A stretch of 35,806 nt of DNA. Origin: an uncultured Alphaproteobacteria bacterium (GTDB taxonomy: Bacteria; Pseudomonadota; Alphaproteobacteria; Rs-D84). Below are positions 32,854-35,127 of the stretch, one piece after another; the stretch's first letter is position 1; every line of letters begins with the position of its first letter. Location: the NCBI GenBank assembly GCA_946625925.1, contig CAMOTP010000002.1, forward strand, positions 1 to 35,806, written 5' to 3'. The notes beneath the pieces were generated by a model. The model made no database searches. It saw nothing but the letters and a program-made list of their open reading frames with translations, and had not been told where the DNA came from. The translations under genes were made by a program, and so were the position numbers.

Positions 32854-35127
32854 ATGACTATACAATTGGAAACAAAACGCAAACAGTTTTCAGAACAGCA
32901 AATTGCTGAATTAACCGCTATATATAATGATTATTTGCACATTGCAAGACAACATCAAGAATTGGTGCAATCAGAACCAATTGAACAAATGGCACTTAAT
33001 AAACTGACAACAATGTACCCAAATGGAAATTTGCCCTGGAAAATAGAGCCAATGACACCGTTTGAACAGAAAAAATTTGATGATTTTATTAATAATGATA
33101 AATTCGAAGATAAAAACAATACATACATAACCATCAGACATATAAAAAAGGAAGAAGACAGGGGATATAATGCCAAATATTATGCTGTGTTGCCATACAG
33201 TATTATTACAATGAATACTACAATACCTGCATCCATAGAACGCTATTCTGTTTTTTATTCGGCTGGAACCAAATTAGGAAACACAACATTTTATATTGAT
33301 GGGCAATATAAAGCGGTTTGTAATGATGTCACCCAGAAAGATTTATCATTAGAAGATGTTATCGTTGATTATAATATGATTGATAATATTTATATCATGA
33401 TAAATCTGGCTGACAGTTATTATAAACGTGAATACATAACAGATGAAAAAGAGGCAGAAAAACATTTTGCTAAATCTTCGGCTAATATATTTGCTAACGA
33501 ATATTTATCATTGGGTGAAAACATTATTTTGGAACTATTGGGGTCTTTTGCAGAAAAATTATTAATATTTTGTCGTGAAATATACGGTATACCATACAAA
33601 CCACATTATACAGTCCAAGAAAATGCAAATGTTTGGAATAGGGCACAACAAGACGGTTTGATACTGTCGGCCCAAGATTTCCAAGATTATTTAAATATCC
33701 GTAATTTTTTGCGTCATCGGTGGGATACCCTGGAAATTTTGGGACGTTTTAATCCGGCAAAGGCTCAAGAAAATGAAAAGACACGGAATAATTACCTAAA
33801 TTCATATTTTAAATTATGTGATAAAACCATTATGCAACGCACCAAGGCATACATAGATGTTTTACATAATCTGCAACATGTTATCAATATAGTGAATCCG
33901 AACAGGATTATGCGGTATGAAAATGAAAGTAATAATAAATTTATTAACAGGGTCAAGTTATCATACCAATCTAATCCAAATATAGATGTTGAGATAAATC
34001 GTCCTTTACTAGATGCGAAATATTTAGGGGTGCGTAATACATTGCATAAAATTTTACCACAAATTCATATTGTTGATGAATATTCTCGTGAATCAGAACA
34101 ACAACAACACATAGATGATTATATAATGCGTTCATGGTTTTTGGAAACATTTACGACGATTGATTGTATGATTATGCGACTGTTTAAATATCGTGGTAAT
34201 AATTATAAACGTGACGAAGCCTGGGGGCATATCACAGAATTGGGTGTTTTGTCTGACACAGAATCTGAAAAATGGTTTAAATATATAAGATTACGTAATT
34301 TAATTGGTCATAATTATTTCAGTACAAATTTACGTGATAAACTTGTAACAATAAGTGACGAATACGAAAAAGACTTAAAAAAATTTATGGGTGAATTGCG
34401 TGATGCGGGACCCGAAGTCGAACAAATACAACCTGGTATTTTGAAATATACTAATTATGATAATCTTGTTGTGATATTGGATGAAAAAAATCACCGGGTG
34501 CTATCCAAAAAATATATTGATACCAAAACATCAAACAATACCGAAAATAATACAATGACACAAAAATCTCAGGAAATCAGAAAAGAAGTTTGTCCAAATG
34601 GTATTGAATTTAATGTATCTGGGAATGAAATTATCAGTGTAAAATTACCAATTGGTATTACTATAAACTTTGATACGCGGAACATTGAATGGGATATTAA
34701 AACCAATTGGCGCATCCAAAACGAATATTCTTATGTTTTACATACAGATAAAAGTAAAATCGTGTTTGATTCAGACCTGCGAATTACAGAATATTATGAA
34801 AAAAATCGCAAAAAAACATTTCGTGCAGGCGACAGTTGGTTCTTGGATGGTCGACACCTTGTTCGATTGGATTCAGGTGCCAGAATAAAAGAATTTAAAT
34901 TTAAAAATTTCCGCAATAAAATTATACAAACCATGTTTTCTCACAAAAAAGACGGTAATAATGTAATGATATTTTCTGATGGTACAATGATAGCACAATC
35001 TGACGTAAAAATAACAATTATGCACAACAATAAAATACTAACATATGATAACCGTCAAGAATTTGCCTCAACATACATAACACCACAAACGGCACTACAA
35101 CAAAATGCGGAAAACCACACCCGTTAA
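32854..35127 (+). CDS. tandem-HEPN protein (two HI0074/DUF86-type RNxxxH motifs) with unassigned N- and C-terminal regions; putative RNase
   Basis: 757 aa. Motif 1 is DYLNIRNFLRHRWDT (RNFLRH at 33700..33717). Motif 2 is KYIRLRNLIGHNYFS (RNLIGH at 34294..34311). Each motif is preceded by matching helical context: IILELLGSFAEKLLIFCREIYG…DGLILSAQDFQDYL before motif 1, and WFLETFTTIDCMIMRLFKYRG…ELGVLSDTESEKWFKYI before motif 2. That context is typical of HI0074-like HEPN domains. Confidence 0.65.
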   Translation: MTIQLETKRKQFSEQQIAELTAIYNDYLHIARQHQELVQSEPIEQMALNKLTTMYPNGNLPWKIEPMTPFEQKKFDDFINNDKFEDKNNTYITIRHIKKEEDRGYNAKYYAVLPYSIITMNTTIPASIERYSVFYSAGTKLGNTTFYIDGQYKAVCNDVTQKDLSLEDVIVDYNMIDNIYIMINLADSYYKREYITDEKEAEKHFAKSSANIFANEYLSLGENIILELLGSFAEKLLIFCREIYGIPYKPHYTVQENANVWNRAQQDGLILSAQDFQDYLNIRNFLRHRWDTLEILGRFNPAKAQENEKTRNNYLNSYFKLCDKTIMQRTKAYIDVLHNLQHVINIVNPNRIMRYENESNNKFINRVKLSYQSNPNIDVEINRPLLDAKYLGVRNTLHKILPQIHIVDEYSRESEQQQHIDDYIMRSWFLETFTTIDCMIMRLFKYRGNNYKRDEAWGHITELGVLSDTESEKWFKYIRLRNLIGHNYFSTNLRDKLVTISDEYEKDLKKFMGELRDAGPEVEQIQPGILKYTNYDNLVVILDEKNHRVLSKKYIDTKTSNNTENNTMTQKSQEIRKEVCPNGIEFNVSGNEIISVKLPIGITINFDTRNIEWDIKTNWRIQNEYSYVLHTDKSKIVFDSDLRITEYYEKNRKKTFRAGDSWFLDGRHLVRLDSGARIKEFKFKNFRNKIIQTMFSHKKDGNNVMIFSDGTMIAQSDVKITIMHNNKILTYDNRQEFASTYITPQTALQQNAENHTR

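Follow-up and report, generated by a model that had tools for sequence, protein, structure and literature searches.

What keeps a presumptive toxin-type ribonuclease (RNase) in check when both of its HEPN domains are joined in one chain, and neither a minimal nucleotidyltransferase (MNT) gene nor a CRISPR array lies beside it? The question is raised by a gene on a 35,806-nucleotide (nt) stretch of contig CAMOTP010000002.1 (hereafter, the window), which comes from an uncultured member of the Alphaproteobacteria. There, a first-pass annotation of the letters alone had described an open reading frame (ORF) of 757 amino acids (aa), divergent from ssb, with two copies of a catalytic HEPN motif; the length, the motif coordinates and the divergent arrangement are all exactly as it had said. 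The protein represents a family that is new and confined to one lineage, and that has two accessory domains not known before; single-chain pairs of HEPN domains outside CRISPR systems are already known. The reading of the whole that we consider best, and hold tentatively at somewhat less than even confidence, is that of a self-contained single-chain HEPN endoribonuclease, derived from HepT, with built-in control and a conditional cellular role.

Two HepT-type HEPN domains with invariant catalytic residues

The gene and its catalytic parts are these:

32854..35127, + strand: tandem-HEPN gene, 757 aa, including the stop codon (ORF list)
33445..33894, + strand: HEPN domain 1 (aa 198-347), the more diverged copy (AlphaFold2 helical bundle; profile matches of relatives)
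33700..33717, + strand: catalytic motif 1, RNFLRH (Arg283...His288); coordinates checked
34093..34404, + strand: HEPN domain 2 (aa 414-517), the HepT-like copy (PF01934; AlphaFold2)
34294..34311, + strand: catalytic motif 2, RNLIGH (Arg481...His486), followed by N-Y, which gives the RX4HXY form typical of HepT

Counted from the preceding stop in the same frame, the ATG at 32854 is the first start codon, and it is here that homologues begin in the alignment; these homologues (~725-800 aa) are collinear with the tandem-HEPN protein from end to end. The bare motif R-x4-H occurs twice in the 757 residues against a mean of 1.0 in shuffled sequences (P=0.26), which is not above chance, so that the bare motif count proves nothing and the case rests on conservation and profile evidence. 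For the narrower form RN-x3-H, also present twice in the protein, the shuffles give P=0.004.

Conservation was read from an alignment of 85 full-length family members, the most distant of which are 21-27% identical to the window protein. Arg283, His288, Arg481 and His486 are each invariant (85/85), and these Arg/His pairs stay fixed while mean identity falls to 21-47%. Among the positions checked, only Tyr24, Pro125, Glu222 and Arg329 are likewise present in every member; Arg311 is found in 84 and Trp62 in 83. The family consensus for motif 1 is N-I-R-[HN]-x-x-[RH]-H-Q-W-D. Two residues past the second catalytic His, position 488 of domain 2 is Tyr in 63/85 and His in 13/85, and the equivalent position of domain 1 is Trp in 69/85.

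Another key line of evidence comes from profiles. The Pfam model HepT-like (PF01934) matches aa 431-512 with 25.0 bits against a gathering score of 23.5 (E=1.7e-5), so that domain 2 passes the threshold of this HEPN family; across 35 aligned members, HepT-like matches 34 and NTase_sub_bind matches 21. With the region of domain 1 (aa 213-350) scanned alone, HepT-like was returned for 11 of 26 members (best E 6.6e-5), NTase_sub_bind for eight and HEPN_LA2681 for one. Furthermore, the two copies align with each other: hhalign of aa 213-350 against aa 421-530 gives a probability of 76% and E=2e-5 over 81 columns, with RNxxRH placed on RNxxSH. The 'same two-helix context' that the first-pass annotation had noticed before each motif is therefore real homology, with the motifs in register, and its assignment of both halves to the DUF86/HI0074 (HepT) type is borne out by the Pfam matches and by structural matches to HepT toxins (see below). 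Both domains belong to the HepT/DUF86 branch of HEPN.

Other searches help to delimit this assignment. The cut-off of the NCBIfam equivalog NF047751 HepT_toxin is not reached (16.3 bits vs 60), no defense model of PADLOC-DB 2.0 matches the tandem-HEPN protein, and sequence searches of the PDB with the protein, HEPN domain 1, the N- and C-terminal domains and whole-family profiles gave nothing significant. The best PDB profile match, to residues 684-740 of a bacterial leucyl-tRNA synthetase (E=1.5), falls on the insert between the HEPN domains (aa 350-412) and is probably due to chance.

Purifying selection acts on every domain. Four independent orthologue pairs (dS 0.6-0.94) were compared, and the ratio of their nonsynonymous to synonymous substitution rates (dN/dS) is 0.09-0.12 for the whole protein; for the separate domains it is 0.03-0.22, HEPN domain 1 being the most constrained (0.03-0.08). 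All five regions of the protein are about equally conserved, the insert as much as the HEPN domains, and only a linker at aa 558-574 is variable.

Predicted architecture and the unassigned domains

AlphaFold2 (AF2), run on the family alignment, gave a model of the full chain with a mean predicted local distance difference test score (pLDDT) of 86.4 and a predicted template-modeling score (pTM) of 0.70; a separate AF2 model of aa 196-520 has a pLDDT of 86.5 and a pTM of 0.73. At the level of prediction, these two pTM values indicate a confident relative placement of the domains. Motif 1 caps helix 273-288 and motif 2 caps helix 468-486. Beyond the HEPN domains, the chain divides as follows:

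32854..33438, + strand: N-terminal alpha/beta domain, aa 1-195 (AF2, pLDDT mostly 85-94)
33901..34089, + strand: small alpha/beta insert between the HEPN domains, aa 350-412 (AF2, beta-alpha-beta-alpha-beta, pLDDT ~90)
34411..35088, + strand: C-terminal beta-rich region, aa 520-745, ~20 strands (AF2)
34525..34569, + strand: disordered, variable linker inside the C-terminal region, aa 558-572 (AF2, alignment)
35089..35124, + strand: variable C-terminal tail, aa 746-757 (pLDDT <50)

When the aa 196-520 model was compared with the PDB by Foldseek, the only structurally coherent matches were HepT toxins and related DUF86 HEPN proteins; each HepT match may align to either of the two HEPN domains. 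The target-normalized template-modeling score (TM) is 0.65 for 7bxo_F (2.8 Å root-mean-square deviation, rmsd, over 105 columns), 0.62 for 6m6u_G, 0.63 for 5yep_B and 0.70 for 1wwp_A, with 2hsb, 7ae6 and 8xeh as further matches; the two best HepT matches have an rmsd of 2.5-2.8 Å over ~100-105 residues. An HEPN fold is thus what the model offers: a helical bundle with a pLDDT of ~86 and a target-normalized TM of 0.53-0.70 to HepT, 1wwp and 2hsb, at E>1.

The flanking regions, which the first-pass annotation could not assign, match nothing known in Pfam, PDB sequences or Foldseek. In the model, the N-terminal domain runs through three helices, a beta-alpha-beta-beta-beta-beta-beta stretch and two helices; it has no recurrent Pfam match and no PDB sequence match. 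We considered it as a degenerate MNT, an identity that its topology suggests, and rejected this: 0/25 members have a nucleotidyltransferase Pfam match, and the MntA signature GSX10DXD is present in 0/85 members (nor does it occur in the long reading frames of the window).

The C-terminal domain has weak recurrent Pfam matches to POLO_box (5/24) and Tcp10_C (3/24). A beta-hairpin repeat was rejected, these matches being weak and no significant internal repeat being present, and so was a WD40/BamB-like propeller: whole-chain Foldseek matches of that type (PDB, BFVD) have a TM <0.17 and an rmsd >15 Å, and are driven by the beta-rich C-terminus. At the very end of the chain, 68/85 members have Arg as their final residue, and over the last 15 residues the net charge averages +1.9; this Arg-ended tail might direct secretion, act as a degron or form an autoinhibitory plug.

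Inheritance and genomic neighborhood

When 5.8 billion proteins were searched, 40 clusters matched, mostly full-length, of which one is 98% identical to the window protein and the rest 32-47%. A profile search of 1.84 billion representative proteins gave 126 matches, all of them either full-length with the same architecture or fragments, and neither a free-standing relative nor any other combination of domains is among them; the four-part architecture is fixed. Wherever a source names members, the label is 'hypothetical', and so the family is indeed uncharacterized, as had been proposed.

To describe the neighborhoods we used 33 loci: the window, five retrieved through an exact match to the protein, and 27 that came out of scanning 185,579 species-representative genomes. 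These 27 come from 24 metagenome-assembled genomes (MAGs) of rumen or gut Alphaproteobacteria, and from the one that is named (Candidatus Enterousia sp.) we infer that the wider lineage of the hosts is the order Rs-D84. Genomes of this order are reported to be mostly <1 Mbp, with most biosynthetic pathways missing, and the organisms to be possibly partner-dependent (PMC12306168). IMG/VR, GenBank phages and PLSDB plasmids hold no family member, and we therefore set aside a mobile or viral origin. Orthologues hold their position among close relatives, and they diverge much faster than the housekeeping proteins encoded beside them: identities are 60% vs 96% for a TrpRS-like neighbor (Pfam tRNA-synt_1b), 46% vs 87% for TyrRS, 42% vs 84% for EPSP synthase, and 52% vs 94% in the locus pair L020/L025. 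Two copies are present in 3/24 MAGs; they are 32-38% identical and come from different deep clades, which binning errors could mimic. The family is chromosomal and vertically inherited.

The search for a partner was negative throughout. No family of neighboring genes recurs in more than four of the 33 loci, and those that recur at all reflect local synteny among close relatives. None of the 33 loci has an MNT gene or a CRISPR-like array, and Pfam scans of the window's ORFs of at least 120 aa, together with one of 59 aa, revealed no nucleotidyltransferase. There is no meaningful repeat in the flanks, no Rfam family near the gene beyond three distant tRNAs, and no flanking non-coding DNA that is conserved beyond close relatives; in these array, repeat, Rfam and flank-conservation scans, no guide RNA or array was found. 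The flanks without MNT or array that had been described for the window are therefore matched at 32 related loci, and the survey of homologues' neighborhoods that the first-pass annotation had recommended brings up no conserved partner.

The neighbors that could be identified are housekeeping or surface proteins: GroEL, EPSP synthase, aminoacyl-tRNA synthetases, TatC, the GTPase Era, an aminotransferase, a glycosyltransferase, a phosphopentomutase-type metalloenzyme, and proteins with MORN or ankyrin repeats. PADLOC, applied to sampled neighbors, found generic GTPase and ankyrin similarity only. The window itself is ordinary chromosome, with BamA, RseP, CdsA, UppS, RRF, RNase E/G, RecG, HtpX and SSB. 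Its RNase E/G homologue (15068..16972, - strand) has S1, catalytic and thioredoxin-like domains; a canonical RNA-decay nuclease is thus kept beside the tandem-HEPN protein.

Two signals bracket the gene:

32773..32801, + strand: best sigma-70-like promoter match, TTGATT-17-TATAAT, ~50 nt upstream of the ATG
35317..35342, no strand assigned: bidirectional terminator-like hairpin, an 11-pair stem with T-runs on both strands

The promoter match shares the highest score of the scan (10 of 12), which covered a region with 20 sigma-70-like matches where shuffles lead one to expect 20.7. The gene's own candidate promoter, as claimed in the first-pass annotation, is therefore plausible and not statistically significant. 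The hairpin is the first convincing terminator-like one downstream.

Between the gene and the hairpin lies a 59-aa ORF with one hydrophobic helix (35132..35311, + strand), which starts 5 nt past the HEPN stop codon. It has a sub-threshold Pfam match to Imm_superinfect (20.4 bits vs 27.9), and in the 98%-identical relative (locus L033) similarity stops after codon 17; this point marks a recombination or insertion-deletion breakpoint immediately 3' of the HEPN gene. We considered the ORF as an immunity or partner gene and rejected it: the match is weak and sub-threshold, homologues have no such ORF on their downstream side, and in the 98%-identical relative its frame is broken.

Further observations concern proteins with repeats, and giant ORFs. 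In symbionts, families with MORN or ankyrin repeats often have to do with interaction with a host or partner, and MORN-repeat lipoprotein-like and ankyrin-repeat proteins are immediate neighbors of the family at loci L009 (4359..5885), L026 (6582..7967) and L031 (2235..2888). In the window, a 1636-aa ORF (25890..30800, + strand) has as its only recognizable feature an N-terminal M48-peptidase-like segment (aa 61-119), and it adjoins HtpX in L033 too; near homologues in other MAGs there are likewise giant ORFs, 1893 aa and 4760 aa long, for which no Pfam match is on record (L001, 11780..17461; L004, 1..7939). The 1636-aa ORF is one of three M48 peptidase genes within 14 kb, the others being a BepA-like gene with tetratricopeptide repeats (17665..18948, - strand) and HtpX (30809..31741, - strand).

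Elsewhere in the window, a 231-aa ORF (3137..3832, - strand) has a sub-threshold match to VirB8 (21.7 bits vs 23.2), and its downstream neighbors on the same strand (2484..3137 and 1601..2473, both -) match nothing in Pfam or among PDB sequences; we rejected a type IV secretion cluster, the VirB8-like match being sub-threshold and without support from neighbors or PDB. Four more ORFs lack a Pfam match: 22266..23114 (+, 282 aa), 23169..25538 (-, 789 aa), 14162..14959 (-, 265 aa) and 31790..32197 (-, 135 aa), the last of which sits between htpX and ssb and is kept in L033. Cumulative GC skew falls to ~21 kb and then rises, turning where genes switch from minus to plus strand (21034/21100); this is probably an effect of gene orientation, not a replication landmark.

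Proposed mechanism, known HEPN systems and rival explanations

We propose that an ancestral HEPN domain of HepT/DUF86 type was duplicated and that the copies became fused, with the small alpha/beta insert between them. Characterized HEPN RNases need two juxtaposed R-x4-6-H motifs (PMC12165695; PMC7641770), and because both are fixed here, an intramolecular pseudo-dimer is the most economical arrangement: the two domains would pack together so that Arg283/His288 and Arg481/His486 line one composite, metal-independent, RNA-cleaving cleft, in the manner of a HepT homodimer or of Cas13 with its pair of HEPN domains. On its sequence, the protein is probably a catalytically active single-chain HEPN RNase. 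Bearing in mind that there is no MNT, and that the Tyr which would be AMPylated is only partly conserved, control has probably moved to the two family-specific flanking domains, which no member has lost; the likeliest task of these N- and C-terminal domains would be to choose the RNA substrate or to gate the cleft, and being built in, they could allow the enzyme to be tolerated without an antitoxin. The weakest step is the role. This may be a vertically inherited cellular enzyme of a reduced-genome gut lineage of Alphaproteobacteria; its target is most likely RNA of the cell itself, attacked under certain conditions in a growth-arrest, stress or infection response.

The closest known system is HepT of the type VII HepT/MntA pair (PF01934/DUF86, PF08780; Shewanella SO_3166, PDB 5yep and 7bxo), which belongs to the same HEPN sub-family by profile and has the same fold as the family's HEPN domains (target-normalized TM 0.62-0.70). 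Domain 2 shares with it the form RX4HXY, which defines MNT-associated HepT (PMC7641770), and the chemistry would by analogy be alike, two HEPN domains forming one RNase cleft. HepT is, however, a free-standing homodimer of ~130 aa that lies beside MntA, which oligo-AMPylates its Tyr, whereas the family has two diverged copies in a 757-aa chain with three extra domains, and its Tyr is 74% conserved. Furthermore, unlike the type VII toxin, the family has no adjacent MntA, misses the equivalog score and does not take the form of a small homodimer; where that toxin is mobile, the family is chromosomal and inherited vertically. FhepTA, a fused MNT-HEPN protein (PMC13000451), also has a HepT-type HEPN regulated by an N-terminal domain in the same chain; that domain inhibits by blocking HEPN dimerization (PMC13000451), and FhepTA thus provides a precedent for built-in domain control. 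FhepTA has one HEPN and a catalytically active MNT and is found on mobile elements, in contrast to the two HEPN domains of the family, its N-domain without nucleotidyltransferase signal and its location off mobile elements.

Cas13 likewise has two HEPN domains in one chain. Unlike Cas13 and Cas13an, the family has no CRISPR array or conserved non-coding RNA at its loci; among the Foldseek matches listed there is no Cas13 structure, and the family's HEPN domains are structurally HepT-like. The HEPN domains of Cas13 have been traced to the AbiD/F clade (PMC12165695), not HepT/DUF86, and any architectural likeness would therefore be convergent. The first-pass annotation had singled out the fusion in one chain as unusual. 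The domains are indeed fused, and non-CRISPR single-chain HEPN dimers had already been documented: the AlphaFold DB clusters in which Yoon et al. 2024 record an intramolecular HEPN dimer number twelve, and no more than two have a link to CRISPR (PMC12165695, Table S2); among the non-CRISPR clusters are DUF4209 proteins, ApeA-like proteins of Daphnia, Bacillus mobilis A0A1Y6ANL6 and Clostridium G7MBT4 (Firmicutes) (PMC12165695). The principle is the same, that of uncharacterized single-chain HEPN pairs without CRISPR; these clusters were found by likeness to Cas13 HEPN dimers, none is alphaproteobacterial, and none has the layout N-domain/HEPN/insert/HEPN/beta-domain. Identity with the two bacterial single-chain dimers among them was rejected, there being no sequence similarity, and a literature search for a HepT-derived tandem HEPN protein found no description.

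RNase L/Ire1, Csm6/Csx1 and RnlA/LsoA offer precedents for HEPN domains gated by appended sensor domains, and Las1 acts in eukaryotic rRNA maturation. Las1 is a precedent for an HEPN nuclease devoted to specific RNA processing (10.1101/760058). All of these differ from the family in having one HEPN per chain and forming homodimers, and the sensor domains of the first three groups (ankyrin/kinase, CARF and others) are unrelated to the family's domains.

Several points weigh against the single-chain, conditionally acting enzyme that we favor. The window protein's own domain 1 has no Pfam match, and the Foldseek E-values for HepT all exceed 1, support coming from probabilities of up to 0.99, TM and rmsd. 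A homodimer with inter-chain sites is an alternative to the single-chain cleft. Nothing in the analysis points to a trigger or substrate. Deep paralogous clades and second copies are more typical of conflict genes (MAG binning errors being possible), and purifying selection that is uniform and leaves no domain hypervariable would suit a constitutive processing enzyme as well as a gated one. Even so, the evidence leans away from a mobile defense gene and from a classical toxin of a toxin-antitoxin pair because the family is inherited vertically, lies in a core-genome setting, is absent from mobile elements and is under purifying selection throughout; it leans away from a plain housekeeping enzyme because of toxin ancestry, rapid protein divergence and deep paralogues. 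A conditionally active cellular RNase is thus the favored role.

The rival that survives best, which we rate as possible and yet rather unlikely, is a constitutive, substrate-specific RNA-processing enzyme: like Las1, it would cut one defined RNA (an rRNA or tRNA precursor, or a class of mRNA), need no inhibitor since it is specific, and use the flanking domains as RNA- or ribosome-binding modules. Vertical inheritance, synteny, core-gene neighborhoods and absence from mobile elements are what such an enzyme would show, as are a dN/dS of ~0.1 in all domains, their equal conservation and the lack of a partner gene, and the gene is kept in a lineage whose genomes are reportedly mostly <1 Mbp (PMC12306168). 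Against it stand divergence much faster than that of housekeeping neighbors, as given above for TyrRS and EPSP synthase, deep paralogous clades with occasional second copies, and descent from a toxin clade; moreover, RNase E/G in the window already covers bulk RNA decay, and no RNA-binding domain is recognizable.

A single-protein anti-phage (abortive-infection) sensor-effector, in which the N- or C-terminal domain senses a phage component and frees the HEPN domains for collateral cleavage of RNA, strikes us as unlikely. HEPN domains are common defense effectors (PMC3710099), the ancestry is of HepT type, and a sensor and effector in one chain without a partner, with relatively fast protein evolution and deep paralogues, would suit this role. 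However, PADLOC has no match for the protein and only generic GTPase and ankyrin similarity for sampled neighbors, the gene lies outside defense islands and mobile elements, it follows one lineage with syntenic orthologues in place of a sporadic, horizontally spread distribution, and no domain has a raised dN/dS.

The more far-reaching version of the HepT-derived reading is doubtful: a Cas13-type intramolecular HEPN dimer would have arisen convergently from the HepT, not the AbiD/F, clade, control by MNT and AMPylation would have been replaced by two built-in domains not seen before, and the result would be a lineage-defining tool of partner-dependent, reduced-genome gut Alphaproteobacteria. 

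We find it improbable that the protein is an exported effector that degrades RNA in a partner or host cell, the producer being safe since the enzyme is inactive, or absent in active form, in its own cytoplasm. The host lineage is proposed to be partner-dependent (PMC12306168), giant ORFs and ankyrin- or MORN-repeat proteins lie near several homologues, the disordered, positive tail with Arg at its end in 68/85 members is loosely like a type IV secretion signal, and there is no immunity or antitoxin gene. Yet the protein has neither signal peptide nor membrane segment, none of the loci has a linked gene for a secretion system (the window's VirB8-like match being sub-threshold and unsupported), and purifying selection is uniform.

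An orphan HepT-type toxin under control in trans, with a distant MNT that AMPylates Tyr488 of RX4HXY as MntA does HepT, has a very slight chance of being correct. Domain 2 keeps the R-x4-H-x-Y form and, as ~10-35 kb around each gene was covered, a distant MNT is possible; against this, Tyr488 is not conserved (Tyr in 63/85, His in 13/85), domain 1 has Trp at the equivalent position, and there is no MNT in the 33 loci or the 35.8-kb window. Toxin-antitoxin pairs are almost always adjacent, and no adjacent MNT is present here. Adjacency is the very criterion that has been used for HepT/MNT pairs (PMC7641770). Equally remote is a non-catalytic HEPN scaffold that binds nucleotide or protein, like NTase_sub_bind/HI0074-like or sacsin-type HEPN: NTase_sub_bind profiles do match 21/35 members, but non-catalytic HEPN domains usually lose the motif (PMC3710099), and catalytic Arg and His fixed in both domains of 85 sequences are hard to explain without catalysis.

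If the self-contained HepT-derived RNase that we favor is real, a toxin of toxin-antitoxin systems would have been domesticated to a stand-alone chromosomal enzyme through duplication, fusion and built-in regulatory domains, and single-chain HEPN pairs, which are otherwise known from Cas13, would have arisen along a second route. Should the convergent-origin version hold, the protein may be a new ligand- or RNA-sensing RNase, or one delivered into a partner cell by means of its Arg-terminated tail. Those who build molecular tools might also take an interest in a compact RNase that is one chain and has its gating built in. The two conserved domains without detectable relatives are candidates for new RNA-recognition or sensing modules, and one gene with four point mutants would offer a tractable handle on the RNA biology of a little-known, uncultured, genome-reduced gut lineage.

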